Positions 1,004-22,325 of a DNA stretch of 64,000 nucleotides are shown one piece after another; positions within the stretch are counted from its first letter, which is position 1, and each line of letters starts with the position of its first letter. The DNA is taken from positions 544,001 through 608,000 of the forward strand of contig CAWKBC010000027.1 in the NCBI GenBank assembly GCA_963847705.1, in the 5' to 3' direction. This DNA is from an uncultured Pseudomonadota bacterium (GTDB lineage: Bacteria; Myxococcota_A; Polyangia; Fen-1088). The notes below the pieces were generated by a model. The model worked only from the letters and a program-made list of their open reading frames with translations, did no database searches and was not told the DNA's origin. A program made the position numbers and the translations under genes.

Positions 1004-2332
1004 CTACGGCCCGCCGGAGACCGGCCAGCCGTTCGCGTCCCAGGCGATCTCCGAGATGCGCAGCGTGGCGGCGCCGCTCGAGCTCCCCTTGAGCGCGTGG
1101 TAGATGTTGTAGGTCTTGTTGTCGTAGGTGATGACCGCGTTGTGGCCGGGGGCGATCCAGTCGCTGTTCCCCTGGACGAGCAACGTCCCGCCCCCCTTCA
1201 TGAGGTCCGTGCCCGCCTCGTCGACATAGGGCCCGGTCACGGTCGTCGAGCGTCCCACGCGGATGTTGTAGTCGTAGGCGCCGCTGCAGCAGGCGCCCCA
1301 CGAGGAGAACAGGTAGTAGTACCCGCAGCGCTTGAACACCCAGCCCCCCTCGAGGCTCCCCTTGGAGTTCGCTCCGTTCGCCAGGGAGTAGAGCGTGGTG
1401 TCGGCGCGGAGGCCGTTCGAGGCGTCCAGCTTCACCATCTTGAGGCCGCTCCAGAAGCTGCCGAGCTCGAGCCAGGGCGTTCCGGCGTCGTCGATGACGA
1501 CGTTCGGGTCGATGGCGTTCCAGTTGTCGGTCTCGCCCATGTTCGAGCAGAGCACCATCCCCTGGTCGGCCCAGCTGCCGCTGTCGAGCGCCGCGCGCGT
1601 CGCCTGGCCGATGCACGACTTGTTGCTGCCGAAGGTCGAGGCCGCGTAATAGAGGTGATACACGCCGCCGAAGTAGGAGATGTCCGGCGCCCAGAGGTTG
1701 GTCGCACCGGTGGCCGTCGCGGCCCAGGCCGGCAGCGCCAGCGGCGTGGGGGCGTTGTTCCAGGTCGTCAGGTTGGTCGACGTCTTGGCGATGAGGCCGG
1801 TCGCGGCGAGGTAGATCGTGCTGCCCAGGACGTAGGCCGCCGGATCGTGGGCGCCCAGGCTCCCGGACAGCGTGAGCGCCTGTGGTGGATTGCTGGCGTC
1901 GTAGGTCGCGCCGGGGCAGGACATTGAACCACCACCGCCACCGGAGCCGGTCGTTCCGCCGGTGCCGGTCGCGCCCGACGAGCCACCTTGGCCCTTGCCG
2001 CCGGCGCCGCCAGTCCCCGTGCTGCCGCCCGTTGCCCGCGCGCCCGCAGCGCCGCCTGTTCCACGCGCGCCGGCTGCGCCGCCCGTTCCCGTCGCGCCGC
2101 CGGTCGCGCTCGCCCCGCCTGTTCCGTTGACGCCGCCGGTGCTCGAGACACCGCCGGTTCCGGTGATGCCGCCCGTGCCCGCGACGCCGCCGGCTCCAGT
2201 CTCGCCGCCGGTACTCGTGACGCCGCCAGTGCCCATCGCGCCGCCGGTTCCAGTCTCGCTGCCGGTCCCCGATTGCCCGCAGCCGAGGAGGGCGCCCATC
2301 CCCAGGAGCGCCATCGTCCGGCGAAGTCTCAT
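1004..2332 (-). CDS. GH43 endo-1,5-alpha-L-arabinanase-like lipoprotein with Gly/Thr-rich linker
   Basis: ATG 2332 overlaps the upstream stop (ATGA). Lipobox ALLGC, TGG-rich linker, and GH43 motifs AHDP, WAPDI, NAIDPN, GSFWSGL, SLEG, GPYVD, APGHN. Confidence 0.88.
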   Translation of the reverse strand: MRLRRTMALLGMGALLGCGQSGTGSETGTGGAMGTGGVTSTGGETGAGGVAGTGGITGTGGVSSTGGVNGTGGASATGGATGTGGAAGARGTGGAAGARATGGSTGTGGAGGKGQGGSSGATGTGGTTGSGGGGGSMSCPGATYDASNPPQALTLSGSLGAHDPAAYVLGSTIYLAATGLIAKTSTNLTTWNNAPTPLALPAWAATATGATNLWAPDISYFGGVYHLYYAASTFGSNKSCIGQATRAALDSGSWADQGMVLCSNMGETDNWNAIDPNVVIDDAGTPWLELGSFWSGLKMVKLDASNGLRADTTLYSLANGANSKGSLEGGWVFKRCGYYYLFSSWGACCSGAYDYNIRVGRSTTVTGPYVDEAGTDLMKGGGTLLVQGNSDWIAPGHNAVITYDNKTYNIYHALKGSSSGAATLRISEIAWDANGWPVSGGP

Positions 2333-4284
2333 GATCCCGTCCTCACGAAGGTGAAGTCGTCGAGCGTGACCGACTGGTTGGCGGCGGCCGTGGCAGTGAC
2401 GCCGATCTGGCAGGTCCCGTTCGTCACCGCGATGCCGGTGATCGACACCTGGGTGAACCCGGTCATCGCCTTGGTCAGGGAGGCGTCCTTCTCGCTGCCG
2501 CCGTATCCCTTGGCATAGAGGTTCGCCGTCGTCTGGCCGCCCGTGCTCTTGGCCCAGACCGACAGCGTGTACGTCCCGTCGGGCAGGTTCGCCACCGCCT
2601 GGTTGAGCGTCGCCTGGTAGGCGGCGCTGTCGGTGAGCTGCCAGCTCCAGTTGCCGGTGTGGCCGCCGGAGACATTGGTATAGGGGGTGCCGCCGCTCGT
2701 GGTGGTGGTCGTCCACCCTGCCGGCTGGGTCATCGCCACCCGGTCGGCCTCGAAGCTCGGGTTGAGCGCGTAGTTGTTGTCGGGCCCGACGGTCCAGGTG
2801 CCGGCGGCGGCGTTGAGCGACCACTCGCTCATCGACGCCATGCTCGGCGTGGTCCCGCTGAAGGTGAGCGGGCACCACTGGTTGTAGCCGAGCCCGTTGC
2901 CGGCGAAATCGCTCCAGCGATCGCCGGCGAAGATGACCGTCGTCCCGGCCGTTCCCTTGACGGTGATGAAGAAGCCCGTCTGCGATACGTGGCTGAAGTC
3001 GTCGTCGGTGTTGCCGATGACGCCCTCGGCGCCGTAGGGGCCCATGATGTTGGTCGCCGCGATGTAGTAGCTGTGCGAGGCGTTCCAGCCGTGCAGATCC
3101 GACGAGCAGAAGTAATAGCTGCCGTTGTACTTGAACATCGTGTTCCCCTCGCGCCCCGCGCCGCCGAAGATGCGCGTGGCCGCGTCGATGCTCAGCGAAT
3201 CGGAGGCGTGCACCGGCGCCACGTAGAGGTTGCTGCGCCCGCTGCTCGACGAGCAGATGAGGTAGGACTTGCCGTCGTCGTCGGTGAAGATCGTCTGGTC
3301 GCCGGTGGTCATGTTGGCCACGTTGGTGACCACCGCCTGCACGTGATCGAAGGCGAACGTCCCGGTCGGCGTGTCGCTGGTGGCGAACAGCTCGCCGGTC
3401 CCCGCCGGACCACCCTGGTACTGCGAGATGAGCACGTATTTCTTGGTGGTGGCGTTGTAGACGACGCCCATGCGGCCGATCCAGGTCCCCGAGTCGACGT
3501 TCGCGCCGAGGCTGGCGGTGGTCAGGACGTCGTTCTCATGCTTCCAGGTGACCAGATCCGTCGACGAGTAGCAGGTGATCGCCGCGAAGCTGGTGTCGCT
3601 GTTCTTCTTCAAGCTGGTGACGTAGCTGACGGCGCCGTTGTATTTGACGCCGTACCAGTAGTACGTGCCGTTGAAGCTGAAGACGCCGCCCCCCTGCGAG
3701 TAGATCGGCGTGCCGGAGGTGTCCTTCCAGAAGGTGTCGTTGTGAATCAGCGCGCCAGCTCCAGGCGTGCCCCCGGTCGCGGAGGTCCCGCCAGTTCCAG
3801 GCGTGCCGCCGGTCGCGGAGGTCCCGCCAGCTCCGAGCGCCCCGCCGGTTCCGGAGGCGCCCGCGTGCCCTGCAGCGCCTCCGCTGCCGCCCGCGCCCGC
3901 GCGTCCTCCGCCAGAGCCGCCGCTCGCGCTTCCGTTGCCGCCGGTGGCGCCACCGCCTGTCCCGCCTCCGGTTCCGAGGGCACTGCCGCCTGTGCCACCG
4001 CCGGCGCTCGCGCCACCGGCTCCCGTCGCGCCGCCCGAGGCGGTCGCGCCACCGGTTCCCGTCGCGCCGCCCGAGGCGGTCGCGCCGCCGCTGCCGGGTG
4101 CGCCGCCGGTCGCGCCGGTCTCGCCGCCTTCACCGGTCTGCCCCCCCGAGCCCGCGGTCGAGCCCGAGCTCCCGCACCCGAGCGAGCAGAGCGCGACGCC
4201 GAGCGCCAGGAACGCAACCGATCGGGGCCGCGAAGCGAGGCGATGCCCATCGAACCGATGCCAGGGGTAGGGGCGGGTGTGCAT
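2329..4284 (-). CDS. GH43 (probably subfamily 24, exo-beta-1,3-galactanase-like) lipoprotein with C-terminal CBM-like domain
   Basis: Lipobox SLGC and a long Gly/Thr/Ala linker, then WKDTSGTPIYSQGGG..YYWYG, CYSSTDLVTWK, GREG, SHVSQ, GDRW. The C-terminal NPSFEAD...LDDF segment looks like a CBM beta-sandwich. Start 4284 (SD-like GAAGGG) or 4299. Confidence 0.8.
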   Translation of the reverse strand: MHTRPYPWHRFDGHRLASRPRSVAFLALGVALCSLGCGSSGSTAGSGGQTGEGGETGATGGAPGSGGATASGGATGTGGATASGGATGAGGASAGGGTGGSALGTGGGTGGGATGGNGSASGGSGGGRAGAGGSGGAAGHAGASGTGGALGAGGTSATGGTPGTGGTSATGGTPGAGALIHNDTFWKDTSGTPIYSQGGGVFSFNGTYYWYGVKYNGAVSYVTSLKKNSDTSFAAITCYSSTDLVTWKHENDVLTTASLGANVDSGTWIGRMGVVYNATTKKYVLISQYQGGPAGTGELFATSDTPTGTFAFDHVQAVVTNVANMTTGDQTIFTDDDGKSYLICSSSSGRSNLYVAPVHASDSLSIDAATRIFGGAGREGNTMFKYNGSYYFCSSDLHGWNASHSYYIAATNIMGPYGAEGVIGNTDDDFSHVSQTGFFITVKGTAGTTVIFAGDRWSDFAGNGLGYNQWCPLTFSGTTPSMASMSEWSLNAAAGTWTVGPDNNYALNPSFEADRVAMTQPAGWTTTTTSGGTPYTNVSGGHTGNWSWQLTDSAAYQATLNQAVANLPDGTYTLSVWAKSTGGQTTANLYAKGYGGSEKDASLTKAMTGFTQVSITGIAVTNGTCQIGVTATAAANQSVTLDDFTFVRTGS

Positions 4285-4469
4285 GGATGGTCCCTTCAAT
4301 GAAGCAAAGGGTTCGGAGGGGCGAATCTGTGCCTCTCGGGCTCCGGATCGGATACTTATTTTGCGGACGTTGACGCCGAAAAAGGCCGCCTCGCAGGCGC
4401 TTTTGTCCGGCCGGGGTGATACTATTTTCGGACTATCTTTACGTGGACTGCTTTAAGCGGACAGAACGA

Positions 4470-5174
4470 ATGAGAGCGGGTCGCGTTGTCCTCTACGGCC
4501 TGTTGGGCAGCCTGGCAATGTTCTGGTCCGCCTCCTGCCAGGGGCCCCAGGAGTTTTTCCGCGACAACGCGCTCAGCATGGGGACCGGCGGCGTGGTCTC
4601 GACGGGCGGCGGGCCAGGCACCGGCGGCGCCCTCGTCAGCGGATCGGGCGGAACCGGAACGGGCGGTGGGGTCTCGACCGGCGGGGTGACCGGAACCGGC
4701 GGCCACACCACGGGCGGCGTGACGGGAACTGGCGGCATCGTGGCGACGGGCGGCGTGACCGGGACGGGCGGCATCGTGGCGACCGGCGGCGTGCCGGGGA
4801 CTGGCGGCATCGTGGCGACGGGCGGCGCGCCGGGGACAGGCGGCATCGCGGCGACGGGCGGCGTGCCGGGGACGGGCGGCGTACCCGCGACCGGTGGGAC
4901 GACGGGCGCGGCCGGATCGTCCGGGACTGCGAGTAACTGCGTCGACGCCATCAAGCTCGCCGGGTACGCGGCGGGCGGGCAAGCCTGCAGCGCTTGCAAG
5001 GAAAACGGGGCCGACAAGTCGATGAACTGCATGAAGGTGATCGACTGTCTCGACACCAACTATCCTTGTGGCTCGGCCAACAACTGCGCCCTGCAGTGCA
5101 ACAATTCGGGCAGCGCCGACAGCATCGTCAGCGCGTGCGTGACCACGCTGCTCTCCGCCGCTGCTTGCATGTAG
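4470..5174 (+). CDS. Lipoprotein with tandem TGG repeats and a C-terminal 10-Cys domain, function unknown
   Basis: Signal peptide ending SASC, repeats of TGG(I/V)VATGG(V/A)(T/P)G, and a ~80-aa C-terminal domain with 10 Cys. ATG 4470 preferred over GTG 4416. Confidence 0.75.
   Translation: MRAGRVVLYGLLGSLAMFWSASCQGPQEFFRDNALSMGTGGVVSTGGGPGTGGALVSGSGGTGTGGGVSTGGVTGTGGHTTGGVTGTGGIVATGGVTGTGGIVATGGVPGTGGIVATGGAPGTGGIAATGGVPGTGGVPATGGTTGAAGSSGTASNCVDAIKLAGYAAGGQACSACKENGADKSMNCMKVIDCLDTNYPCGSANNCALQCNNSGSADSIVSACVTTLLSAAACM
4730..4905 (+). repeat. Coding tandem repeat with a 36-bp (12-aa) unit
   Basis: About five degenerate copies of ACNGGCGGCATCGTGGCGACNGGCGGCG...CCGGG, encoding TGGIVATGGVPG-like units. 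Confidence 0.8.
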
Positions 5175-5219: not shown

Positions 5220-6077
5220 ATGAAAAAGCCCTTTCTTCTGTCTGCTGGCACCGCCGCGCTGTCGTTCTGTCTCCTGGGCGGCCTGGCGCGCGCCGATCTC
5301 GACCTGCCGCGGCCGAGTCCGTCCGCCAAGGTGGTTCAGACGGTCGGGCTGACCGACATCACCGTCGACTACAGCAGCCCGGGGGTGAAGGGGCGAAAGA
5401 TCTGGGGCGCCGTGGTTCCCTACGACCAGCTGTGGCGCGCGGGCGCCAACAACCCGACCAAGATCACCTTCAGCCGTGACGTCAGCTTCGCCGACAAGCC
5501 GGTGCCGGCCGGGACGTACGCCTTCTTCGTCATCCCGACCAAGGGGGCCTGGACGGTCATCCTCAGCAAGAAGACCGATCAGGCGGGGACGGGGCGCGAC
5601 TACAAGCAGGCGGACGATCAGCTGCGCGTGCAGCTGACGCCGAAGGCGGCGCCCTTCCGCGAGCGGCTCGCCTACCTCGTCACAGACTTCACCGACGACA
5701 AGGCGTCGCTCGATCTCGAGTGGGAGAAGCTGCGCCTGGCGATCCCGATCGCGGTGCAGACCTCCGCCCAGGCGCTGGCCAACATCAACAGCACCATCGA
5801 CGGCACCTGGCGCACCTACGCGAACGCGGCGCGCTACCTGCTGGAAAACAAGAAGGACTACGACACCGCGATGAAGTACGTCGACCAGTCGCTGGCGCTG
5901 AAAGAGGACTGGTACAACGTCTGGATCAAGGCGGAGCTGCAGGCGGCGAAGGGGAACACCAAGGACGCGCGCGCCACCGGCCAGCACGCCTACGAGCTCG
6001 GCAAGAAGAGCGACGGGTTCTTCCTGGAGGGTGAGGTCAAGAAGACCCTCGAGGCGTGGAACAAGAAGAAGGCCTAA
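5220..6077 (+). CDS. DUF2911 domain exported protein with C-terminal TPR-like helices
   Basis: Signal peptide; PRPSPSAKVVQTVGLTDITVDYSSPGVKGRKIWG..VPY..LWRAGAN is typical of DUF2911. Confidence 0.85.
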   Translation: MKKPFLLSAGTAALSFCLLGGLARADLDLPRPSPSAKVVQTVGLTDITVDYSSPGVKGRKIWGAVVPYDQLWRAGANNPTKITFSRDVSFADKPVPAGTYAFFVIPTKGAWTVILSKKTDQAGTGRDYKQADDQLRVQLTPKAAPFRERLAYLVTDFTDDKASLDLEWEKLRLAIPIAVQTSAQALANINSTIDGTWRTYANAARYLLENKKDYDTAMKYVDQSLALKEDWYNVWIKAELQAAKGNTKDARATGQHAYELGKKSDGFFLEGEVKKTLEAWNKKKA

Positions 6078-7282
6078 CCTTCGGGACGGTCGCTCAGCAC
6101 CCGGCGGTAAACCGCGACGTAGCGGTCGACCGCCGGCTCGATCCGGTAGCGGGTCTCCGCCAGGTGCCGGGCGGCCAGCGAGAGGCGCCGGTGAAGGTCG
6201 TCGTCGCCGAGCAGCCGGCCCGCGGCCGCGGCCATCGCCTCGACATCCCCGAGCGGACAGAGAAAACCGACCTCGCCCTCGGGGATCACCTCCGGGAGAC
6301 CGCCGACCGCCGAGGCGATCACCGGGACGCCGCAGGCCATCGCCTCGAGCGCGGCGAGGCCGAAGCTCTCGGTCTCGCTGGGGAGCAGGAAGAGATCGGC
6401 GTCGCGCAGGATGCCCGGAAGGTCGACGCGCTCGCCGAGAAACTCGACGTCGGCGGCGAGACCGAGCGCGGCGACCTGGGCGGCGATCCGGGGCCGCTCG
6501 GGACCATCGCCCACCAGGCGAAGGTGGGCCGGGCGGGCGGCGCGCAGGCGGGCGAACACCTCGACGACGTCCTGAACTCGTTTGACCGGACGGAAGTTGG
6601 AGACGTGAACGACGATCGGCCGCTCCGGCAACGGACGCGCCGCGGGGCCGGCCGGCGAAAACCGATCCGCGTCGACGAAGTTGGGAATGATGTCGATCGC
6701 CACCGTGTCGGGGACGCCCAGCGACTCGTGCGTGGCGCGGGCGAGCCAGGCGGACGGGGTGGTCACCGCGTCGCTGGCGGCGATCGAGAACCGGGTGAGC
6801 GGCAAGAAGCTCGGATCGCCCCCGACCAGGGTGATGTCGGTGCCGTGGAGCGTGGTCACCAGCTTGGGGGCGGCGGCCCGGCCGCCAGCGTCGGCGGCCA
6901 GCACCTCGCGCGCCAGGTGGGCGCTCACCGCGTGCGGGATCGCGTAGTGGGCGTGCACGACGTCGAGCCGTTCGCGGCGCGAGACCTCGACGATCTTCGA
7001 GGTGAGCGCCAGCGTGTAAGGCGAGTGTTTGAGCTGGGGGTAGGCAGGGGGCGCGACGCGGTGGAAGGTGACGTTCGCGCGCGCCGGGTCGAGGCGGCCA
7101 GGGACGTCGTCGCTGAAGACGTGAACGGCGTGCCCGCGCCGCGCCAGCGAGGTGGCGATCTCCGCCGCCACGACGCCGCTGCCGCCGAAGGTCGAGAAGC
7201 AGACGATGCCGACCCGGAGCGGCGCCCGCGTCTGGCCGGGCTCGCCCGGCCTGTTGCCTGCCTTGCCGGGCCCAACCGTCAT
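6074..7282 (-). CDS. bshA: N-acetyl-alpha-D-glucosaminyl L-malate synthase BshA (GT4)
   Basis: GGSGVVA, HAHYAIPHA, TTLHGTDITLVG, HVSNFRPVKR, ESFGLAALEAMACG; overlaps the bshC stop. Confidence 0.92.
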   Translation of the reverse strand: MTVGPGKAGNRPGEPGQTRAPLRVGIVCFSTFGGSGVVAAEIATSLARRGHAVHVFSDDVPGRLDPARANVTFHRVAPPAYPQLKHSPYTLALTSKIVEVSRRERLDVVHAHYAIPHAVSAHLAREVLAADAGGRAAAPKLVTTLHGTDITLVGGDPSFLPLTRFSIAASDAVTTPSAWLARATHESLGVPDTVAIDIIPNFVDADRFSPAGPAARPLPERPIVVHVSNFRPVKRVQDVVEVFARLRAARPAHLRLVGDGPERPRIAAQVAALGLAADVEFLGERVDLPGILRDADLFLLPSETESFGLAALEAMACGVPVIASAVGGLPEVIPEGEVGFLCPLGDVEAMAAAAGRLLGDDDLHRRLSLAARHLAETRYRIEPAVDRYVAVYRRVLSDRPEG

Positions 7283-8934
7283 GGCTCGAGGTCCTGCAGC
7301 GCCGTCGTGAACGGGCCGACGGCGGTGAGGCGCGCGAACACCAGCGCCTTCAAGGCCGCGGGGCCCAGCCGACCGGCGAGCGACGGCCAGGCGTAGGCCC
7401 GCTCCTGCGGGACGCCCCCGGGCGCGAGCGCGTTCTGCACGCGCGCGAGCCGGCCCAGGGCCACCCCCTCACGCTCGGCCAGCTTGCGCCCGTAGCGCCC
7501 GGTCAGCCGGGCGAGCGCCCGGGCGACCTGCGCCCGCGTGCGCTCCGCCGCGCGGGCGAGGTTTCGATCCTTGGGATTGAGGGCGGTCGCGGCGGCGGCG
7601 ATCTGCTCGACGGCGGGGGCGATCTCGGCGGCCACCCGCGCGGCCAGGTCGGCGGCGGATGGGAGCTCTGGCGATGCGGTGTGAGGCAGCCGCGCCAGGA
7701 GCTCGGCCTGGGGGCGCGCGACGTCGTCGGCGGCCAGACCGAGCTCCCTCAGCCGGCGCCGCGTGTGCGCGTCGAGACAGCGAAAGCGCCCGCGCGGGAC
7801 GATGAGCGGCATCGCCAGGCGGAAGTGTTCGTAAAGCGGTCCCGTCTGGGCGAAGTAGCTCACCTCCGCCAGGCCCCCGACGTAGGCCGCCGTCGGCAGC
7901 AGCGTGTCCTGGACGATCGGTCGCAGCAGCGCGGAGGTGGAGAAGCGGAGCGGTTCGTGCGCCAGCGCCTGGGCAACCTCCTGGTCGGAGAAGGCGCCGT
8001 CGGCTCCGGTCAGCCTCCAGGCCGACGTCCCGCTCCCCTCGGTGCGCTCCATCCGAAAGCGAGGGCCGTGCGCCGAACCGCGGTGACCGAACACCAGCGC
8101 GCAGCCGGGCCGCAGCGGGATCTGCCGTTCGAAGCCCGCCTCCGCCAGGGCCGCGCCTTGCTCGTCGAGGCGCTGGCCGAGCGTGGTGCAGGCGCCGAGC
8201 GCTTCGCGGTAGATCGGGGCGGCCAGGGCGGCGACGCGCGCCTCGCGGGGGTCGAAGATCAGCAACCCCTCATCGGCGAAGAGCTCGGCCAGGACGCCGG
8301 CGAACGCCTGCGCGATGGGGCGTCCGACGGTGTAGTGGGCGCGCAAGAGAGCCAGCGTCTCCTTCGCGGCTGGTCCGGCCCCCAGCAGCTCGGCGAGCGT
8401 GTCGAGGAGCGCGCCGACCTCCGCGGGGAGCCGGCGGTGCGCAACCGAGACGCGCGCCTCCGCGGGCGGCTCGCCCGGGAGCGACAGCTTGACCGGCGCG
8501 CCGCCGCCACCGGCGACCGTCGCCGAGGCGATCTCGGTGAAGTCGTGGTCCTCGGTCTGCAGCCAGAAGAGGGGCACGCAGCGGACGCCCGACTCCGCCT
8601 CCAGCGCCCGCGCCACCGCGATCGCGGATGCTGCCTTGTAGAATCCGTAGAGCGGCCCCAGGAAGAGACCGACCTGCTGGCCGGTCGCCACCACGGCCGT
8701 TCGCCCTGCACCCAGCGCCGCCAGATTGTGCGCGCGCGCACGGCTGGGCGGGAGGGCGGCCTGTTGATCGCGCAGCACCGGGAGGAGCTGGGGTGAGATC
8801 CGGCGCTCGGCCGCGGCGCGAGCGCGCGCCACCCGGTCGGCGCCCGATCGGAAGTCGAGCGCGATGAACCTGCGCGCGATCTCCTCGCCGGCAAGGTAAG
8901 AGCTGGAGAATGGCCGGGGCACCGAGAGCATCAA
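7279..8934 (-). CDS. bshC: Bacillithiol biosynthesis cysteine-adding enzyme BshC
   Basis: TGQQVGLFLGPLY..YKA, FWLQTEDHDFTEI, RFSTSALLRPIVQDTLLPT..YVGG..E, PQER. Start could be 8934, 8931 or GTG 8922. Confidence 0.92.
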   Translation of the reverse strand: MMLSVPRPFSSSYLAGEEIARRFIALDFRSGADRVARARAAAERRISPQLLPVLRDQQAALPPSRARAHNLAALGAGRTAVVATGQQVGLFLGPLYGFYKAASAIAVARALEAESGVRCVPLFWLQTEDHDFTEIASATVAGGGGAPVKLSLPGEPPAEARVSVAHRRLPAEVGALLDTLAELLGAGPAAKETLALLRAHYTVGRPIAQAFAGVLAELFADEGLLIFDPREARVAALAAPIYREALGACTTLGQRLDEQGAALAEAGFERQIPLRPGCALVFGHRGSAHGPRFRMERTEGSGTSAWRLTGADGAFSDQEVAQALAHEPLRFSTSALLRPIVQDTLLPTAAYVGGLAEVSYFAQTGPLYEHFRLAMPLIVPRGRFRCLDAHTRRRLRELGLAADDVARPQAELLARLPHTASPELPSAADLAARVAAEIAPAVEQIAAAATALNPKDRNLARAAERTRAQVARALARLTGRYGRKLAEREGVALGRLARVQNALAPGGVPQERAYAWPSLAGRLGPAALKALVFARLTAVGPFTTALQDLEP

Positions 8935-8989
8935 CTATACTCGGTCGCGTCGCTGCCGCCCGTCCCGCCTGCTTGCTTGCGATCCCTCC

Positions 8990-11566
8990 ATGCATCACCG
9001 CGCCCCCCGCCTTATTCTTTCGGTTCTCCTCTCGCTGCTCATGTTTCGCCACGCTGTCCTGGCGGCCGGTCCTCCGCCGCAACCGAACGCCGCGCAGATC
9101 GCCCTCGGCCTGCGCAAGCTCGGCGTCGCCGGCAGCGTCCTCTACGTGGCGGCGCACCCCGACGACGAGAACACCGCGCTGCTCGCCTATCTGGCCAACG
9201 GGGCGCTCTTGCGCACGGCTTACCTGTCGCTCACCCGGGGTGACGGCGGCCAGAACCTGATCGGCTCCGAGCAGGGGCCGGCGCTGGGCCTCATCCGCAC
9301 GCAGGAGCTGCTGGCGGCGCGCCGGATCGACGGCGCGGAGCAGTTCTTCACCCGCGCGCGCGACTTCGGCTTTTCCAAGAGCCCCCAGGAGACGCTGCGC
9401 ATCTGGGGCAAGGACGCCGTGCTGGCCGACGTGGTGGCGGTCATCCGGAAGTTTCGCCCCGACGTGATCGTCACCCGCTTCTCGCCCGAGCCGGCGGAGA
9501 CGCACGGGCACCACACGGCCTCGGCCATGCTGGCGCTGGAGGCGTTTCATGCGGCCGCCGATCCCAAGTTTCACCCCGAGCAGCTGGTGGGCGGCGTCGG
9601 CGTCTGGCAGGCGCGGCGGATCTTCTGGAACCGATCCTCCTTCTTCATCAAGCCGACCGACGACGTGAGCGGCGACGCCAAGCTGGACGTCGACGGCTAC
9701 AACCCCCTCCTGGGCGAGTCGTACGGCGAGATGGCCGCCGACGGCCGCAGCATGCACAAGAGCCAGGGGTTCGGCGTGGCGCGCACGCGCACGCCGATCG
9801 TCGAGTACTTCAAGCTGCTGGCGTCGTCGGACCCGAAGGAGATCGGGGCCGGGAAGCCGCTGGCGGGAATCCTGGCCGGCATCGACGTCACGCTCAAGCG
9901 CTTCGCCGGGGCGGCGCGGCTGCGGGGCCTGGTCGACAGGGCGATCGCGAAGTTCGACCCTGCCGCGCCGTACGCCTCGGTGCCGGCGCTGGCCGCCGTC
10001 GACGGCGCGCTGTCGGAGATCTCCGACGCCGGCTGGCGTGGGGAGAAACAGCGCGAGGTCGGCGAGCTGGTCGTCGCCTGCGCAGGGCTGTTCGTCGAGG
10101 CGACGGCGGCCGATTACCGCGCGGCGCCCGGGACGGCCGTCGAGATCACGGCCACCGCCGTCGACCGCTCACCGGTGGCGGTGACGCTCGACGAGGTCCG
10201 GTTCCCGTTCGAGGCCACCGGTCATGCCGTGGCGCACAAGCTGGAGACGCCGAAGCAGGACGGGCAGCGGATCTCCGGCGCCGCGGCCCCCTTCGAGCTC
10301 AAACAGAGCGTGAAGCTGCCTGCCGAGCTGGCCCCCACGACGCCGTACTGGCTCGAAGCGCCGCCCGACGCCGGCCTCTATCACGCCGCTCCGGCGTTCA
10401 TCGGCCTGCCCGAACGCGCGTCGCCCGTCGAGGTCACGTTCGGCTTCACGATCGGCGGTCGCCGTTTCACCGTCGCGCGTCCGGTCAGCTACAAGTGGAC
10501 CGATCCGGTGATGGGGGAGCGCTATCGGGCGCTGGAGGTGACGCCGGCGGTGTCGGTTCGCCCCGAGACGAGCGTCTTGATGTTCCCCCGCGGCGCGGTT
10601 CAGACGCTCACGGTGCGATTGGTGGCGGGCGTTGCCTCGGCATCAGGCCTGCTGCGTCCCGAGGCGCCGGCCGGCTGGACCGTCGAACCGGCCTCCGCGC
10701 CGTTCACGCTGGGCGCCGTGGGGAGTGAAGCGGTCGTGAGCTTTCAGGTGCGCGCCAATGCCGGTGCTGGAGCCTCGCCCGCCCCGTTGCAGGTCGTCGC
10801 CGAGCTCGCTGGCGCCCGTCTGTCGCGGGGCGTGGTTCGGATCGAGCACCCGCACATTCCGATCCAGACCTACCTCGTCGCCGCCGACGTCCAGCTGGTC
10901 CCGGTGGATCTCGCCATTGCCGGCAAGCGGATCGGTTACATCCCGGGACCGGGCGACGAGGTCCCAGCCAGCCTGCGCCAGGTGGGTTACGAGGTGACGA
11001 TCCTCGGCGATGAGGCGCTGGCCGCCGGCGCGCCGGCGCTCGGGCGCTTCGACGCGATCGTGGTCGGCGTCCGCGCCTTCAACACCAACGAGCGGCTGCG
11101 CGCCGCGCACGCCGTGCTCATGGCCTACGTCGAAAACGGCGGGACGCTGGTGGTGCAGTACAACACCAACAACCGACTGGCGGCGCTCACCGTCCCGCTC
11201 GGACCCTGGCCGTTCGACATCGGCCAGAAGCGCGTCACCGACGAGACGGCGGCGGTCACCTTGGCGGCGGCCCGTCACCCCGCGCTCACCACGCCGAACC
11301 TGATCGGCCCCAAGGATTTCGAGGGTTGGGTGCAGGAGCGTGGTCTCTATTTCGCCGACAAGTGGGACAGCCACTACGAGACGCCGCTCTCGATGCACGA
11401 TCCCGGCGAGCCGCCGCAATCAGGGAGCCTGCTCTGGGCGCGCTCCGGGAAGGGGACCTTCGTCTACACCGGCCTGGCCTTCTTCCGGCAGCTCCCGGCG
11501 GGCGTGCCGGGGGCCTATCGGCTGTTTGCCAACCTGCTGGCCGGCGGACATCCGCGGGCGCCCTGA
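8990..11566 (+). CDS. Exported PIG-L/LmbE-family deacetylase or amidase with long C-terminal extension
   Basis: Signal peptide; AAHPDDE, TRGDGGQN, RTQEL, DFGFSK, HGHH, RSMHKSQGFG. The C-terminal region (IGYIPGPGD...QERGLYF...FFRQLPAGVPGAYRLFANL) resembles a class I glutamine-amidotransferase-like fold. Confidence 0.88.
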   Translation: MHHRAPRLILSVLLSLLMFRHAVLAAGPPPQPNAAQIALGLRKLGVAGSVLYVAAHPDDENTALLAYLANGALLRTAYLSLTRGDGGQNLIGSEQGPALGLIRTQELLAARRIDGAEQFFTRARDFGFSKSPQETLRIWGKDAVLADVVAVIRKFRPDVIVTRFSPEPAETHGHHTASAMLALEAFHAAADPKFHPEQLVGGVGVWQARRIFWNRSSFFIKPTDDVSGDAKLDVDGYNPLLGESYGEMAADGRSMHKSQGFGVARTRTPIVEYFKLLASSDPKEIGAGKPLAGILAGIDVTLKRFAGAARLRGLVDRAIAKFDPAAPYASVPALAAVDGALSEISDAGWRGEKQREVGELVVACAGLFVEATAADYRAAPGTAVEITATAVDRSPVAVTLDEVRFPFEATGHAVAHKLETPKQDGQRISGAAAPFELKQSVKLPAELAPTTPYWLEAPPDAGLYHAAPAFIGLPERASPVEVTFGFTIGGRRFTVARPVSYKWTDPVMGERYRALEVTPAVSVRPETSVLMFPRGAVQTLTVRLVAGVASASGLLRPEAPAGWTVEPASAPFTLGAVGSEAVVSFQVRANAGAGASPAPLQVVAELAGARLSRGVVRIEHPHIPIQTYLVAADVQLVPVDLAIAGKRIGYIPGPGDEVPASLRQVGYEVTILGDEALAAGAPALGRFDAIVVGVRAFNTNERLRAAHAVLMAYVENGGTLVVQYNTNNRLAALTVPLGPWPFDIGQKRVTDETAAVTLAAARHPALTTPNLIGPKDFEGWVQERGLYFADKWDSHYETPLSMHDPGEPPQSGSLLWARSGKGTFVYTGLAFFRQLPAGVPGAYRLFANLLAGGHPRAP

Positions 11567-11567
11567 G

Positions 11568-11729
11568 ATGGCTCCCGAGCTGGAAGACGACGGCAAGGAG
11601 CCCGCGGCGCGCGCCGAGCTCGACGACGCGCCGCCGTTCCTCACCTGGCGCGCGATCTATCTCATCGTCCTCGGCGCGCTGGCTGTGGAGGTGTTGCTCG
11701 GCGCCGCGTTGACCCTGGCCGCCTCGTGA
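11568..11729 (+). CDS. Small single-TM membrane protein (53 aa) coupled to the symporter
   Basis: MAPELEDDGKEPAARAELDDAPPFLTWRAIYLIVLGALAVEVLLGAALTLAAS; starts 1 nt after the PIG-L stop and overlaps the symporter start (GTGA). Confidence 0.7.
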   Translation: MAPELEDDGKEPAARAELDDAPPFLTWRAIYLIVLGALAVEVLLGAALTLAAS

Positions 11730-13441
11730 GCACGCTCGACTGGGCCGTCCTGTTCGGGACGCTGGCCGCCATCGTCGCTTACGGCATCTGGAAGACGCGC
11801 GGCCCGTCGAGCATGACCGACTACGTGCACGGCGGTTACCGCGACCGCTGGCTGACGATCGGCCTCGGCGTGATGGCGACCCAGGCCTCGGCCATCACCT
11901 TCCTCTCGATGCCGGGGCAGGCCTACGAGGACGGCATGCGCTTCCTGCAGTTCTACTTCGGCCTGCCGATCGCGATGGTGATCCTCTCCGTCGCCTTCAT
12001 CCCGCGCTTCTACAAGCTGCGCGTGCTCACCGCGTACGAGTACCTCGAAGGGCGCTTCGATCTGAAGACGCGGCAGCTGGCGGCGCTCCTGTTCCTCCTC
12101 CAGCGCGGGCTCTCCGCCGGGATCACCATCTACGCGCCGGCCATCGTGCTCTCCAAGGTGCTGGGCTGGCCGCTGAACCTGACCTGCGTGGTGATCGGTG
12201 GCCTCGTCATCCTCTACACGGTGGCGGGTGGGACGCGCGCGGTCAGCCAGACGCAGCGGCAACAGATGGTGGTGATGCTGGGCGGGATGGTGGTGGCGTT
12301 CGTGGTGATCGTCCACAAGCTGCCGGCGGAGCTGTCCTTCCGACACGCGGTGTCGCTGGCCGGGACGCTGGGGAAGATGAACGTCGTCGACTTCTCTCCC
12401 GATCTCGGGAACCGCTACACCTTCTGGTCGGGCCTGGCCGGCGGGGGCTTTCTGGCGATGGCCTACTTCGGGACCGACCAGTCGCAGGTGCAGCGCTATC
12501 TGTCGGGAAGGTCTGTGACGGAGAGCCGGCTGGGGCTGCTGTTCAATGGCCTGCTCAAGGTCCCGATGCAGTTCCTGATCCTCTTCGTCGGGGTGATGGT
12601 CTTCGTCTTTTATCAATTCAACCAGCCGCCGCTCTTCTTCAACGAGTCGGAGCTGGCGCGCGTCGCCCAGACCTCGCGCGCGCCAGAAATGCAGGCGCTG
12701 GAGGCCGAGCACCGGCTGGCCTTCGCCAGGAAGCGCGTCGAGGTGGCGCGGCTGGCGGCGGCGCTCGACGGGGGGGACGCACCGGCGATCGCGGACGCCC
12801 GCGCGGGCCTGCGCGCGGCGGCCGCCGGCTCGGAGGCGATTCGTGAGAGGGCGCGGAGGCTCATCGCCGCCGCGGTGCCGCGCCCCGAGATCCACGACGG
12901 CGACTACGTCTTCCTGTCGTTCGTGATGGCCAATCTGCCGCGTGGCCTCATCGGGCTCCTCCTGGCCGTCATCCTGTGCGCCGCCATGTCGTCGACGGCC
13001 AGCGAGCTGACGGCCCTGGGCGGCTGCACCGTGGTCGACTTCTACCGGCGCAGCTTTCGCCCGGAGGCCACCGACGCGCACTACCTGCGGGTCGCCAAGA
13101 TCGCCACCGGCGTCTGGGGGCTCCTGGCGGTGGCCTTCGCCGGGTTCGCCTCGCTGGTCGACAACTTGATCCAGGCGGTCAACATCCTCGGCTCGCTCTT
13201 TTACGGCACCATCCTGGGGATCTTCCTGGCGGCCTTCTTCTTTCGCCGCTTGCGGGCGACGCCGGTCTTCGTCGCCGCGATCGTCTCCGAGTTGCTGGTC
13301 GTCGGGCTCTGGCTGGGGACGAAGATCGGATTCCTCTGGTTCAACGTGATCGGCTGCGGCGCCGTGTTGCTCTTGTCATTGCTGCTGAGCGGGTCAGACT
13401 TCGGCCGCCACTCAACCCGGACCAGGGAGCCCTCCCCATGA
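11726..13441 (+). CDS. Sodium:solute symporter (SSS) family transporter
   Basis: Many TM helices; MATQASAITFLS.PGQAY, TAYEYLEGRFD, YFGTDQSQVQRYL, AAMSS. Confidence 0.92.
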   Translation: MSTLDWAVLFGTLAAIVAYGIWKTRGPSSMTDYVHGGYRDRWLTIGLGVMATQASAITFLSMPGQAYEDGMRFLQFYFGLPIAMVILSVAFIPRFYKLRVLTAYEYLEGRFDLKTRQLAALLFLLQRGLSAGITIYAPAIVLSKVLGWPLNLTCVVIGGLVILYTVAGGTRAVSQTQRQQMVVMLGGMVVAFVVIVHKLPAELSFRHAVSLAGTLGKMNVVDFSPDLGNRYTFWSGLAGGGFLAMAYFGTDQSQVQRYLSGRSVTESRLGLLFNGLLKVPMQFLILFVGVMVFVFYQFNQPPLFFNESELARVAQTSRAPEMQALEAEHRLAFARKRVEVARLAAALDGGDAPAIADARAGLRAAAAGSEAIRERARRLIAAAVPRPEIHDGDYVFLSFVMANLPRGLIGLLLAVILCAAMSSTASELTALGGCTVVDFYRRSFRPEATDAHYLRVAKIATGVWGLLAVAFAGFASLVDNLIQAVNILGSLFYGTILGIFLAAFFFRRLRATPVFVAAIVSELLVVGLWLGTKIGFLWFNVIGCGAVLLLSLLLSGSDFGRHSTRTREPSP

Positions 13442-14064
13442 AGATGCGATCCTCTCTCCTGATTGCCGCCGTGGCCACCCTCGGCCTCGGGGCCTTCGTG
13501 GCGCGCGCGGAGGCCAAGAAGGCCGCCACGCCGGCCGGCGCCAGCAACGGATTCCAGACCGACTTTCTCGGCCTGCTCGACGACGTGCAGAAGAAGATCT
13601 TGTCGCTGGAGGACGCCATCCCGCAGGACAAGTTCAAGTGGCGGCCGGGCCCCGGCGTCCGCTCGGTCTCCGAAGCCTTCCTGCACATCGCCTACGGAAA
13701 CTACGGTTTCACCAAGGGCGCCACCGGCAAGGCGCCGCCGGCCGACGTCGGCTGGGGAGCGGACCACGCCAAGTGGGACGCCAAGACGACCGACAAGGCC
13801 GAGATCAAGAAGACGCTCGAGGCCTCCTTCGAGCAGGTGCGCGCGGCGATGAAGGACGTCACGGACGCCGACCTCGACAAGAAGGTCAACGTGTTCGGGC
13901 ACGACCTGACGGAGCGCGCGGTCTGGATGGCGCTCCTCGGCCACCTGAACGAGCACATGGGGCAGGAGGTCGCCTACGCCCGCGCCAACGGCGTCGTCCC
14001 GCCCTGGAGCATGCCGAAGGGCGCAAATGGCGCGAACGGCGCAAACGGGGCAAACGGTGGTTGA
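13438..14064 (+). CDS. Exported DinB/YfiT-superfamily protein
   Basis: ATGA overlap with the symporter stop; signal peptide ending ARAEA; WRP..GVRS.SE.FLHIA and HLNEHMGQ..Y.R.NG.VPPWS (three-His metal site); GAN repeats at the C-terminus. Confidence 0.85.
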   Translation: MKMRSSLLIAAVATLGLGAFVARAEAKKAATPAGASNGFQTDFLGLLDDVQKKILSLEDAIPQDKFKWRPGPGVRSVSEAFLHIAYGNYGFTKGATGKAPPADVGWGADHAKWDAKTTDKAEIKKTLEASFEQVRAAMKDVTDADLDKKVNVFGHDLTERAVWMALLGHLNEHMGQEVAYARANGVVPPWSMPKGANGANGANGANGG

Positions 14065-14107: not shown

Positions 14108-14920
14108 CTAGCGCGCCGTCCAGCCGCCGTCGATGAGCAGCGTGGTGCCGGTGATCATGGCGGCCGCCGGCGAGCAGAGGAAGACGACGGAGGCGGCGAC
14201 GTCCGCCGGCTCACCGACGCGGCCGAGCGGGATGCGCGCCAGGAGATCACGGCGGAAGTCGTCGTCCTCGAGCCACTTCACCGTGCCAGGGGTGCGGATG
14301 AAGGTCGGCGCGACGGCGTTGACGTTGATGCCGTACGGCGCCCACTCGACCGCCAGGCACCTGGTGAGGTGGGCGATGGCCGCCTTGGTCATGCAGTAGA
14401 CCGACTCGGTCGGCAGCGCCACGAAGCCAGCCTGCGAGCTCAGGCTGACGATCCGGCCGCCGCGCCCGGCGGCGATCATCGCGCGCCCGACCGCCTGGCT
14501 GACGAAGAACGTTCCCTTGAGGTTGACGGCCACCGTCGCGTCGAAGTCGGCCTCGGTCACCGACTCCGCAGCGTTGGGCGGACCGATGCCGGCGTTGTTG
14601 ACCAGGATGTCGAGGTGGCCGAAGTGACCGACCGCCTGCGCGACCGCCGCCGAGACCTCCGCCGGCCGCGCGACGTCCATCTGCAACGGCAGCGCGTGGC
14701 GGCCGAGCGCGCGGACGACGTCGGCGACATCACCCGCCGCGCCGAGATCGCGAAAGCCCAGCGCCAGATCGGCGCCGGCCCGGGCCAGGGCGATGGCCAC
14801 CGCGCGGCCGATCCCGCGCGCGGCGCCGGTGACCAGCGCGATTCGTCCGGTGACGTCGAAGGGCCGTGCGGCGTCCGTGCCGGAAGGCGCGGTCGTCATC
14901 GAGGTTGGCGTTTCATTCAT
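14108..14920 (-). CDS. SDR family oxidoreductase
   Basis: [25 protein letters not shown]. Confidence 0.9.
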
Positions 14921-14936
14921 TGGCGGAAGGTATCGC

Positions 14937-14961
14937 GTAACCACCTGCGACGGGCGACGTA
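14937..14961 (+). promoter_or_regulatory. Candidate ECF-sigma promoter upstream of the bufferin-like precursor
   Basis: GTAACC-N15-CGTA ending 58 nt before ATG 15020; resembles the SigF/ECF16 consensus GTAACC-N16-CGAA (consensus recalled, match imperfect). Confidence 0.45.
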
Positions 14962-15019
14962 GCACCGGTGAACGAGGACCGGGCCGCGGTGGCCCTTCGA
15001 CCTAACCCAGGAGAGAGAC

Positions 15020-15265
15020 ATGAGCATCAAGGGAGCAATGATCGCCGCTTCGGTGGCCGGGCTGTTCACGATGGGCGTCGCCGGCATGGCTTCGGCGAAA
15101 AAGGGAGACGACGTCATGTGCAGCGGCGTCAACGCCTGCAAGGGGCAGAGCGCCTGCAAGGGTGGCGACAACGCCTGCAAGGGGAAGAACGGCTGCAAGG
15201 GGCAGGGGAACATGAAGATGAGCAAGGCCGACTGCGAGACCAAGGGCGGAAAGGCCGTCAAGTAA
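15020..15265 (+). CDS. bufA2: BufA2-like bufferin precursor peptide (Cys-rich, exported)
   Basis: SD AGGAG; signal peptide; core CSGVNACKGQSACKGGDNACKGKNGCKGQG...CETKGG with 6 Cys; directly upstream of an MNIO gene. Confidence 0.85.
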   Translation: MSIKGAMIAASVAGLFTMGVAGMASAKKGDDVMCSGVNACKGQSACKGGDNACKGKNGCKGQGNMKMSKADCETKGGKAVK

Positions 15266-15288
15266 CGGGCAAAGAGACGTGAACGACA

Positions 15289-15318
15289 GGCCGGCGGCGC
15301 CTCGACGCGCCGCCGGCC
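15289..15318 (+). terminator. Strong intra-operon stem-loop between the precursor and MNIO genes
   Basis: GGCCGGCGGCGC-CTCGAC-GCGCCGCCGGCC, a 12-bp perfect stem with no U-tract. Confidence 0.6.
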
Positions 15319-15337
15319 GCTCGTCACCCGAGACGCC

Positions 15338-16195
15338 ATGACGAACACCTCGACAGCGCAGCTGTTCCCCAACCTGGGTCGCGGCCTGGGGCTGCGGCGC
15401 GAGCACTACCAGCACGTCGTCGAAAATCGGCCGCCGGTCGGCTGGTTCGAGGTGATCTCGGAGAACTTCCTGGGCGCCGGCGGCAATCCGCGGCGCGTGC
15501 TGGAGGCGGTCCGCCGCGACCACCCGGTCGTCCTGCACGGCGTGTCGCTGTCGATCGGTTCGACCGACCCGCTCGACGAGCGCTATCTCACCGAGCTGGA
15601 CGCGCTGGCGCGGGCCGTCGAGCCGGCCTGGATCTCGGACCACCTCTGCTGGGGCGCGGCGCACGGGATCAACGCGCACGATCTGTTGCCGCTGCCGTAC
15701 ACCGAGGAGGCGCTGGCCCACGTCGCGCGCCGGGTGGAGATGGTCCAGGAGCGGCTGGGACGGAGAATCCTGCTGGAGAACCCTTCCAGCTACCTGGTGC
15801 TCGAGGGCGACATGCCGGAGCACGAGTTCTTGGCCGCGCTGGCCCGGCGCGCCGACTGCGGCATCCTGCTCGACGTCAACAACGTCTTCGTGAGCGCCCA
15901 CAACCACGGATGGGATCCGCAGGCCTACCTGGCGGCGATGCCGGCCGAGCGGGTCGGTCAGATTCACCTGGCCGGTCATTCCGAAGAGGGCGCGCTGCTC
16001 ATCGACACCCACGACGGACAGGTCGCCGACGGCGTCTGGCAGCTCTATGCCGAGGCGGTGAGGCGGTTCGGGGCCCGATCGACGATGATCGAATGGGACG
16101 CCGACGTCCCGGCGTTCGAGGAGCTGGAGGCGGAGCTCGGTCGGGCGGCGCGGTGGGAGAAGATGGCGCTGGGGGAGCGACGCGATGCGGCCTGA
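15338..16195 (+). CDS. bufB: Multinuclear non-heme iron oxidative enzyme (MNIO, DUF692), BufB-like
   Basis: GLGLR..H, FEVISENF, LHGVSLSIG, SDHLCW, LLENPSSY, LLDVNN, IHLAGH, IDTHD, IEWD. Confidence 0.92.
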   Translation: MTNTSTAQLFPNLGRGLGLRREHYQHVVENRPPVGWFEVISENFLGAGGNPRRVLEAVRRDHPVVLHGVSLSIGSTDPLDERYLTELDALARAVEPAWISDHLCWGAAHGINAHDLLPLPYTEEALAHVARRVEMVQERLGRRILLENPSSYLVLEGDMPEHEFLAALARRADCGILLDVNNVFVSAHNHGWDPQAYLAAMPAERVGQIHLAGHSEEGALLIDTHDGQVADGVWQLYAEAVRRFGARSTMIEWDADVPAFEELEAELGRAARWEKMALGERRDAA

Positions 16196-17003
16196 GCGCG
16201 CGCCACGGCCCTCGCTGGCGGCCGTCCAGGCGGCGCTGCTGTCGCGGATCACCGGCCAGGAGCTGGGCGCGCCAGCGTGGGACACGACGTCGTTGATTCA
16301 GGGAGACGCGCGGGCGAGCGCCGAGGAGCGGCTGGCGATCTATTCGTTCATGTACGGCGCGCGCTTCGTCGAGGCGCTGGAGTCGCAGTTCCCGCGGCTG
16401 GCGCGCCAGATCGGCGCCGATGCGTTCGCCGACCTGACGGCCAACTACACGGCCGCTCGCCCGTCGCGCCACCCGTCGCTGCGTGAGCTGGGGCGCGCGC
16501 TGCCCGGCTGGCTGGCGGCGCAACAGCCCGACACACCGGCGCTGGCGGCCCTGGCGGCGCTCGAGTGGGCGCGCGCCGACGTCTACGATCTCGCCGACGA
16601 GCCCGCGATGACGCTGGAGGCGCTCCGCGCCTTTCCGCCTGAGCGCTTCGGCGAGCTGCCGCTCAAGTTGATCGCGGCGCACCGCTTCGTGGAGGTCGAG
16701 CGCGGGACCGAGGCGCTGTGGGACGGGCTGGCACCAGACGCGGGCGAAACGCCGGACCTGCTCCCGGCATCGCCGCAGGCCGGTCCGGGCGCGACGCTGC
16801 TCGTCTGGCGCCAGGAGATCGCCGTCTACCACCGCGCGGTCGATCCAGAGGAGCGCGCGGCGCTCGCCTTGATGTCATCCGGCAGCCGGTTCGGGGTCAT
16901 CTGCGACGCACTCTCCGCGGCGCATGGCGACGAGACCGCCGCGACGCGGGCGTTCGCCTGGCTCTCGACCTGGATCTCTGACGGCCTGCTGACCGAGCTC
17001 TGA
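16185..17003 (+). CDS. bufC: MNIO partner protein (DUF2063, BufC/HvfC-like)
   Basis: ERLAIYSFMY..RF.EAL...FP, F..L...Y....PS....L...G, LAALEWA; overlaps the MNIO stop. Confidence 0.85.
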   Translation: MRPERAPRPSLAAVQAALLSRITGQELGAPAWDTTSLIQGDARASAEERLAIYSFMYGARFVEALESQFPRLARQIGADAFADLTANYTAARPSRHPSLRELGRALPGWLAAQQPDTPALAALAALEWARADVYDLADEPAMTLEALRAFPPERFGELPLKLIAAHRFVEVERGTEALWDGLAPDAGETPDLLPASPQAGPGATLLVWRQEIAVYHRAVDPEERAALALMSSGSRFGVICDALSAAHGDETAATRAFAWLSTWISDGLLTEL

Positions 17004-22159: not shown

Positions 22160-22325
22160 TTTTGGAGGCTCTCACCTTCCAAGGGGCAGCGAATCGATTT
22201 CGTTGCTCGGGAGCGGTCGGTCATGGCGCGATACGTCAGCGGCGCCCGGATCTCCTTCCCTGGCGATCCCACCTCCGGAAGCGAGAGAGCCGAAGAGTGG
22301 CCGCTGGGAAACAAATTTGCCCGAG

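Follow-up and report, generated by a model that had tools for sequence, protein, structure and literature searches.

The window analysed here, a stretch of 64,000 nucleotides on contig CAWKBC010000027.1 of an uncultured Polyangia bacterium (GCA_963847705.1), carries a small operon next to the bacillithiol genes bshA and bshC. The operon encodes an LmbE/PIG-L hydrolase with a signal peptide, a membrane peptide of 53 amino acids (aa) and a transporter of the sodium/solute symporter family (SSS). This module is real, conserved and uncharacterised, its genomic link to bacillithiol holds, and its proposed function follows the logic of a known thiol salvage system. Some role linked to bacillithiol is probable. 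In a more specific reading, the hydrolase would be a periplasmic amidase, glucosamine-malate would be re-imported, and a form translated from a second start codon, Met18, would perform the BshB step of bacillithiol synthesis; we consider this reading evenly poised.

The assembly of the window genome (G000) is 84.7% complete with 6% contamination, and its nearest relatives are metagenome-assembled genomes (MAGs) labelled Polyangia or Myxococcales. Signal peptides were called by eye and by conservation in homologues (basic start, hydrophobic core, A-x-A). The locus comprises the following features:

5220-6077, plus strand: DUF2911 protein of 285 aa with signal peptide (PF11138), abutting and converging on bshA
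6074-7282, minus strand: bshA, N-acetylglucosamine (GlcNAc)-malate synthase (TIGR03999, 457.7 bits, cut-off 273.7)
7279-8934, minus strand: bshC, cysteine-adding enzyme, with bshA directly after it and no bshB1 between (TIGR03998, 373.1 bits, cut-off 265.8)
8935-8989: divergent intergenic gap of 55 bp in the sequence, between the first base of bshC (8934) and the ATG of the PIG-L gene (8990)
8990-11566, plus strand: LmbE/PIG-L hydrolase of 858 aa (PF02585; PF10633 weak)
9041-9043, plus strand: second in-frame ATG of the hydrolase (Met18), where the hydrophobic core of the signal peptide ends
11568-11729, plus strand: single-pass membrane peptide of 53 aa, starting one base past the PIG-L stop and overlapping the SSS start
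11726-13441, plus strand: SSS of 571 aa (PF00474, 121.7 bits; TIGR00813, 214.6 bits)
13438-14064, plus strand: DinB protein (DinB_2) of 208 aa with signal peptide (PF12867, 54 bits), overlapping the SSS stop

The first-pass annotation had described the gene positions from bshA to DinB, a divergent gap of about 55 bp and a plus-strand operon of PIG-L protein, 53-aa peptide, symporter and three-histidine DinB. All of this was recovered, with bshA and bshC above their NCBIfam cut-offs and the genes of the operon abutting or overlapping. By eye, hexamers resembling a -10 box overlap on the two strands around 8934-8941, which is a lead only, and a scan of the gap between bshC and the hydrolase for the sigma-70 consensus returned 0 sites and no full promoter.

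Whole-genome sampling covered two phyla, Myxococcota and Bacteroidota. A phylum sample of 161 Myxococcota genomes contained bshC in 17 and the hydrolase in 18, and an order sample of 46 genomes contained bshC in 32 and the hydrolase in 33. Every bshC genome of either sample (17/17 and 32/32) shared the hydrolase; related genomes are not independent in these counts. The hydrolase lay within 7 kb of bshC in 14 of the 16 phylum-sample genomes with both genes other than the window genome. Among Myxococcota loci with enough flank (some genomes counted twice), bshA or bshC stood beside the hydrolase in 60/64 and the symporter followed it in 60/62; in Bacteroidota the symporter followed in 32/33. The linkage was seen in three gene orders, namely that of the window, a single-strand row DUF2911-bshC-(bshB1)-bshA-hydrolase-peptide-SSS (L025, L032, L035, L090) and an arrangement with DUF2911 behind the symporter (L092, L094, L099, L101, L129, L135). 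Parts of the module are retained even when scattered, for example in G049, and the symporter orthologue was kept though unlinked in G008, G049 and G089. Linkage of the operon to bsh genes, on which the initial proposal of a thiol-conjugate system depended, is thus well borne out for the hydrolase and the symporter. A homologue search returned, among the matches listed, close relatives only, under generic names, and the Atlas clusters named Acidobacteriota as the commonest phylum.

The hydrolase was found in two of the 158 bshC-negative genomes, G106 and G559, as eroded copies on long branches of the hydrolase tree (2.45 and 0.82), and a symporter orthologue was not found in either. The copy in G106 (99% complete, no bshA over the cut-off) lacks every metal ligand; that in G559 (89% complete) keeps the ligands and has lost three other conserved motifs. 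The G106 copy (L096:8079-10547) is full-length and a possible pseudoenzyme; an acyl-CoA synthetase gene adjoins it, and the genome has no bsh genes. No hydrolase was present in 11 distinct bshC-negative Bacteroidota genomes. By the counts in the two phyla, the module needs the bacillithiol genes, but the bacillithiol genes do not need the module.

The hydrolase consists of a signal peptide (residues 1-26), a PIG-L domain (about 33-309), a helical linker, two beta-sandwich domains and a C-terminal domain (644-858) which resembles class I glutamine amidotransferases and contains no cysteine. Its AlphaFold2 (AF2) model, with a predicted local distance difference test score (pLDDT) of 91.8, has the Rossmann-like deacetylase fold of the LmbE/PIG-L superfamily. 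In this model the best structural match of the PIG-L domain was MshB (1q7t; Z 19.5, root-mean-square deviation (rmsd) 3.9, 241 aligned), and the C-terminal domain matched 2gk3 (Z 16.0, rmsd 3.1, 190 aligned). The metal motif and the GlcNAc-binding residues of MshB have been defined previously (PMC4101496). The HxDD + H motif (H56, D58, D59, H175) is present in 61 of 62 aligned homologues and lost in G106 alone, and R103, D125 and H172 align with the MshB substrate-binding residues R68, D95 and H144. The protein scored far below the cut-offs of the BshB1, BshB2, Mca and MshB models, with 28.9 bits for the BshB1 equivalog TIGR04001 (cut-off 182.5), 18.1 bits for TIGR04000 (cut-off 195.25) and 42.9 bits for TIGR03446 (cut-off 277.15). 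Identified LmbE/PIG-L members hydrolyse N-acetyl- or N-acyl-glucosamine cores (PMC4101496); a glucosamine-malate compound would therefore fit, and other amino sugars equally. A shorter paralogue precedes ABC importer genes (ATPase and permease) instead of the symporter in L105, L107 and L108; in L107 and L108 the solute-binding protein of this importer was recognised as well.

Apart from the hydrolase, the window assembly gave no PIG-L match. The reported absence of a short bshB from the window was confirmed and extends to the whole assembly, in which an unfiltered BshB1 profile run over all six frames found none at 84.7% completeness. Among the 32 bshC-positive genomes of the window genome's family, BshB1 exceeded the cut-off in G581 only, and it did so in none of five tested genomes of family f17. 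On the hydrolase tree (a quick tree of 72 rows, 40 of them unlabelled) the BshB1 label changes four times, with at least three changes forced; among carriers of the cassette, BshB1 has disappeared on three or more occasions. Where BshB1-less genomes were tested, bshA remains intact beside bshC, and its retention indicates that the deacetylation step is still required. A single LmbE enzyme can cover both reactions: in Staphylococcus aureus one BshB serves as deacetylase and amidase, and Mca is able to replace MshB (PMC5790435). The view that the hydrolase is primarily the missing BshB was rejected because 11 other cassette genomes have a true BshB1 gene placed between bshC and bshA; its coexistence with the hydrolase there points to a role other than synthesis.

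A candidate for the missing step is a shorter form of the hydrolase itself. In homologues the hydrophobic core of the signal peptide ends with a methionine, and database gene calls frequently begin there. Under a broad criterion (a Met that follows a hydrophobic stretch and lies 4-16 residues ahead of the predicted cleavage site) it was present in 40 of 56 dereplicated Myxococcota hydrolases (51/71 before dereplication), as against 5/40 Bacteroidota hydrolases, 3/29 DUF2911 proteins of the same loci and 12/144 heuristic signal peptides of the window genome. In loci near the window genome's own family (membership of named loci assigned by similarity and tree), Met occupied the slot -11 to -5 in 27 of 32 dereplicated hydrolase signal peptides, the controls being 4/32 for an upstream slot and 1/14 for DUF2911. 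The signal regions of this set share a mean identity of 22%, and Met occurs in the slot more often than any other residue, with leucine behind it. The mRNA around the second Met is weakly folded, with a median minimum free energy of -3.2 kcal/mol (n=33) compared with -10.5 kcal/mol in the same slot of DUF2911 and -6.2 kcal/mol at the true DUF2911 starts. The second Met was found in 16 of 19 family genomes which tested BshB1-less, and G581, the sole family member with BshB1, lacks it. Together these features suggest that a start at Met18 would yield a cytoplasmic form of the hydrolase. Of the earlier description of an exported PIG-L enzyme, the export signal stands, and the second start codon suggests that the enzyme is not solely exported. 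Some of the leaders in L011, L124, L125, L126 and L137 have twin arginines ahead of the hydrophobic core, and in several of them the first Met lies far upstream, overlapping the bshC start region; the export route and the true start may differ between genera. The long and short forms of Salmonella SseL (PMC13515050) are alike in that initiation at an internal in-frame codon omits a targeting signal and gives a cytoplasmic form. Unlike SseL, the putative case here concerns a metabolic enzyme with a Sec-type signal peptide, and the short form is predicted from conservation alone to fill a pathway gap.

The nearest solved relative of the symporter is the sialic acid transporter SiaT (5nv9, E 5.7e-44), whose Neu5Ac and sodium site residues are known (PMC5931594). 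S422 and S423 align with the Na2 serines S342 and S343 of SiaT, and the two carboxylate contacts S60 and T63 are kept. In contrast to SiaT, T58, R135 and the Na3 residue D182 are replaced by Q53, S130 and Q177, Q82 falls in a gap, and the symporter has a small partner peptide and another gene context. An invariant arginine lies three residues before the R135 position, one helical turn away. The protein is thus an SSS member by PF00474, TIGR00813 and its Na2 serines and not a SiaT orthologue by its substrate site; its residues make an anionic sugar a plausible cargo. The 53-aa peptide is conserved in both phyla, with W27 and Y31 present in 48/48 aligned sequences. Its modelled complex with the symporter scored 0.81, the best control 0.00, on a scale whose mark was reached by 116/157 solved pairs and 2/215 mismatched pairs; the runs agreed in at least 76% of contacts with a partner pLDDT of at least 68. 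The model supports binding, and the peptide is a predicted symporter subunit. For the terms tried, no mention of small SSS subunits was found in the accessible text of PMC7918813.

From these parts we infer the following scheme. In the periplasm, the putatively exported LmbE hydrolase would cleave the amide that joins cysteine to glucosamine in bacillithiol or in S-conjugates of it. The symporter, assisted by its peptide, would then re-import glucosamine-malate, and BshC would attach cysteine to it again. Translation from Met18 would supply a cytoplasmic hydrolase in place of BshB1, which was not found in most of the family. In the window genome's family only, the exported DinB might conjugate electrophiles in the periplasm. 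Extended to diderm bacillithiol users as a periplasmic cycle (export, optional DinB conjugation, LmbE cleavage, re-import by symporter and peptide) with one two-start gene allowing the loss of bshB1, the scheme is tentative and somewhat doubtful.

Several observations weigh against the scheme. In Bacteroidota, bshA or bshC stood beside the hydrolase in 0/26 loci, and one further genome had bshC 7 kb from the hydrolase with unrelated genes in between. There bshC is nearly universal (241/251 and 146/151 in two overlapping samples) and hydrolase matches number 95/251 and 85/151, so that this phylum adds little; the 95 matches comprise 71 full orthologues and 24 weaker ones, most of which represent a shorter paralogue. 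The unpublished G487 is counted in the class tallies, but no conclusion depends on it. The Myxococcota copies of the hydrolase form one clade, and much of the co-occurrence therefore reflects shared descent of one cassette; all genomes of the window genome's family are MAGs. The C-terminal domain of the hydrolase resembles glycosidase accessory domains too. No bacillithiol exporter was identified, and no search aimed at one was made. As for Met18, no Shine-Dalgarno sequence precedes it in the window and in other loci its presence is inconsistent. The second Met also tracks the loss of BshB1 imperfectly, being present in 7 of 11 BshB1-positive genomes and in 2 of 6 BshB1-less genomes of other families; G572 and G574 have neither BshB1 nor the second Met.

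These last points bear on an unlikely alternative in which the module serves salvage without a second start and deacetylation falls to a non-homologous cytoplasmic deacetylase or to traces of the enzyme before export. It would account for G572, G574, G163 and three more genomes that lack both BshB1 matches and the Met, for the Met in BshB1-positive genomes, and for the missing Shine-Dalgarno sequence. It does not explain why Met leads the slot at so low a signal-peptide identity, why the mRNA there is less structured than at true DUF2911 starts, or why G581 lacks the Met. The repeated loss of BshB1 among cassette carriers could also follow if the module scavenged bacillithiol or GlcNAc-malate of foreign origin (prey, lysed cells), or if it carried out the deacetylation itself in the periplasm, either of which would make BshB1 dispensable; importer and BshC would then complete bacillithiol from imported glucosamine-malate. 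We regard this as improbable, since an intact bshA would be needless for pure scavenging and the periplasmic detour requires a so far unknown GlcNAc-malate exporter.

A role in the uptake of some other N-acetyl amino sugar, such as a cell-wall or chitin fragment or a sialic-acid-like acid, would reduce the proximity of bsh genes to one cassette inherited or co-regulated. LmbE enzymes include chitobiose deacetylases, SiaT is the nearest symporter, the Bacteroidota loci lack bsh adjacency, the Myxococcota copies are one clade, and the shorter paralogue stood before an ABC importer in three of the nine loci looked at, with no bsh genes alongside. Nevertheless, the link to bsh genes was kept through repeated rearrangements, in genomes without bshC the hydrolase and the symporter are either eroded or missing, the recurrent neighbours included no catabolic sugar gene that was noticed, and even the unlinked DinB follows bshC, all of which makes an amino-sugar role a poor prospect.

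The first-pass annotation had grouped DinB with the PIG-L protein and the symporter as a trio. DinB as a core part of the module was rejected: an orthologue was found in 0/160 other phylum genomes, including 16 with the cassette, and it directly followed the symporter in 11/52 loci. In the order sample, orthologues occurred in 25/46 genomes, that is in 25/32 bshC-positive and 0/14 bshC-negative ones, and lay on another contig than the cassette in 12 of the 25. In three genera with both states it was present in 8/12 bshC-positive and 0/5 bshC-negative genomes (p 0.03, kin not independent). The neighbourhoods of the 12 unlinked genes had no shared context among 32 flanking ORFs scanned, and a distant DinB (41% identical) had the symporter directly upstream in 1/16 metagenome loci (L164). 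DinB is a family-specific accessory whose thiol link is probable. It resembles the bacillithiol S-transferases BstA/YfiT in its DinB family match, in its three histidines (H83, H169 and H173, invariant in 21/21 aligned orthologues) and, within the order, in its restriction to bshC-positive genomes. It differs from them in its signal peptide, its absence from other cassette-bearing families and its PDB matches, which are the uncharacterised DinB proteins 3gor, 3dka and 3di5 and not YfiT/BstA; mycothiol transferase models matched weakly, below the cut-off. On sequence grounds it is a candidate exported thiol S-transferase, and periplasmic conjugation by DinB is the weakest step of the proposed scheme.

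The gene set first proposed for the module was real, and it overlooked DUF2911, a recurrent partner more constant than DinB. The majority of related loci contain DUF2911; it stands beside the module in Myxococcota and in 21/28 Bacteroidota loci with enough flank. Its AF2 model (pLDDT 90.4) combines a beta-sandwich with TPR-like helices, for which no Foldseek match at E<=0.001 and no PDB sequence match were obtained. Two further DUF2911 paralogues are encoded in the window genome.

Other features of the genome concern the wider thiol and envelope context. Mutual exclusion of bacillithiol and glutathione in the family was rejected, gshB being over the cut-off in 3/9 bshC-positive and 3/6 bshC-negative genomes tested. 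For the reduction of bacillithiol disulfide (BSSB), no YpdA-type reductase and no BrxA/B exceeded the cut-off in 5/5 genomes of the family (G000, G555, G560, G566, G578). A short-chain dehydrogenase/reductase (SDR) oxidoreductase gene at 14108-14965 (minus strand) converges on DinB and is retained in the closest relatives only. At 15020-17003 (plus strand) lies a Bufferin-type cluster for a ribosomally synthesized and post-translationally modified peptide, with an 81-aa Cys-rich signal-peptide precursor, an MNIO BufB (379.5, cut-off 310) and a DUF2063 partner. Its place after the cassette is retained in the nearest relatives (L004, L005, L008, L009, L030), and it is a second likely envelope-stress locus. 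Lipoprotein-like ORFs at 1004-5174 and 20663-23960 have long Gly/Thr/Ala-rich linkers followed by glycoside-hydrolase-like domains (by eye).

Predictions place bacillithiol in many diderm phyla (PMC6282198). A 2018 review described its import and export as unknown and stated that no periplasmic route resembling that of glutathione had been established for it (PMC5790435). The module is absent from the accessible portions of two accounts of bacillithiol in diderms (PMC6282198, PMC6336425), and no description of it was found in the titles and abstracts of the searched literature, a scope outside which subscription papers and supplements lie. The module provides candidates for the enzyme, the transporter and a partner peptide of bacillithiol traffic, and its presence in the cultured Cytophaga aurantiaca DSM 3654, Segetibacter koreensis DSM 18137 and Flavihumibacter petaseus NBRC 106054 makes the question testable. 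The proposed scheme, if true, would explain thiol production in genomes that carry bshA and bshC yet lack bshB, would bear on predictions from gene content, and would add a rare bacterial enzyme dual-targeted via a start codon within its signal peptide.

Among known systems, the hydrolase shares with Bca/BshB2 and Mca the LmbE fold, the HxDD + H metal site and the proposed cleavage of an N-acylglucosamine amide with recycling of the sugar. Mca and the BshB of S. aureus also act as deacetylases. Bca/BshB2 and Mca are small single-domain proteins, with no export mentioned in the available text of PMC5790435 and PMC4101496. Unlike Bca and Mca, the hydrolase described here is 858 aa long, starts with a signal peptide and includes two beta-sandwiches as well as a GATase-like domain, and its gene is coupled to that of an importer. 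Glutathione is salvaged in the periplasm by gamma-glutamyl transpeptidase together with an importer. In Escherichia coli, glutathione is exported to the periplasm (PMC5790435). The logic would be the same in both cases: the thiol leaves the cytoplasm, an exported amidohydrolase cuts the protected amide, and the fragments are re-imported. The proposed bacillithiol system would differ from glutathione salvage in its thiol and in an unrelated enzyme fold and transporter, the hydrolase being a PIG-L protein by Pfam and fold and not an N-terminal nucleophile (Ntn) hydrolase.

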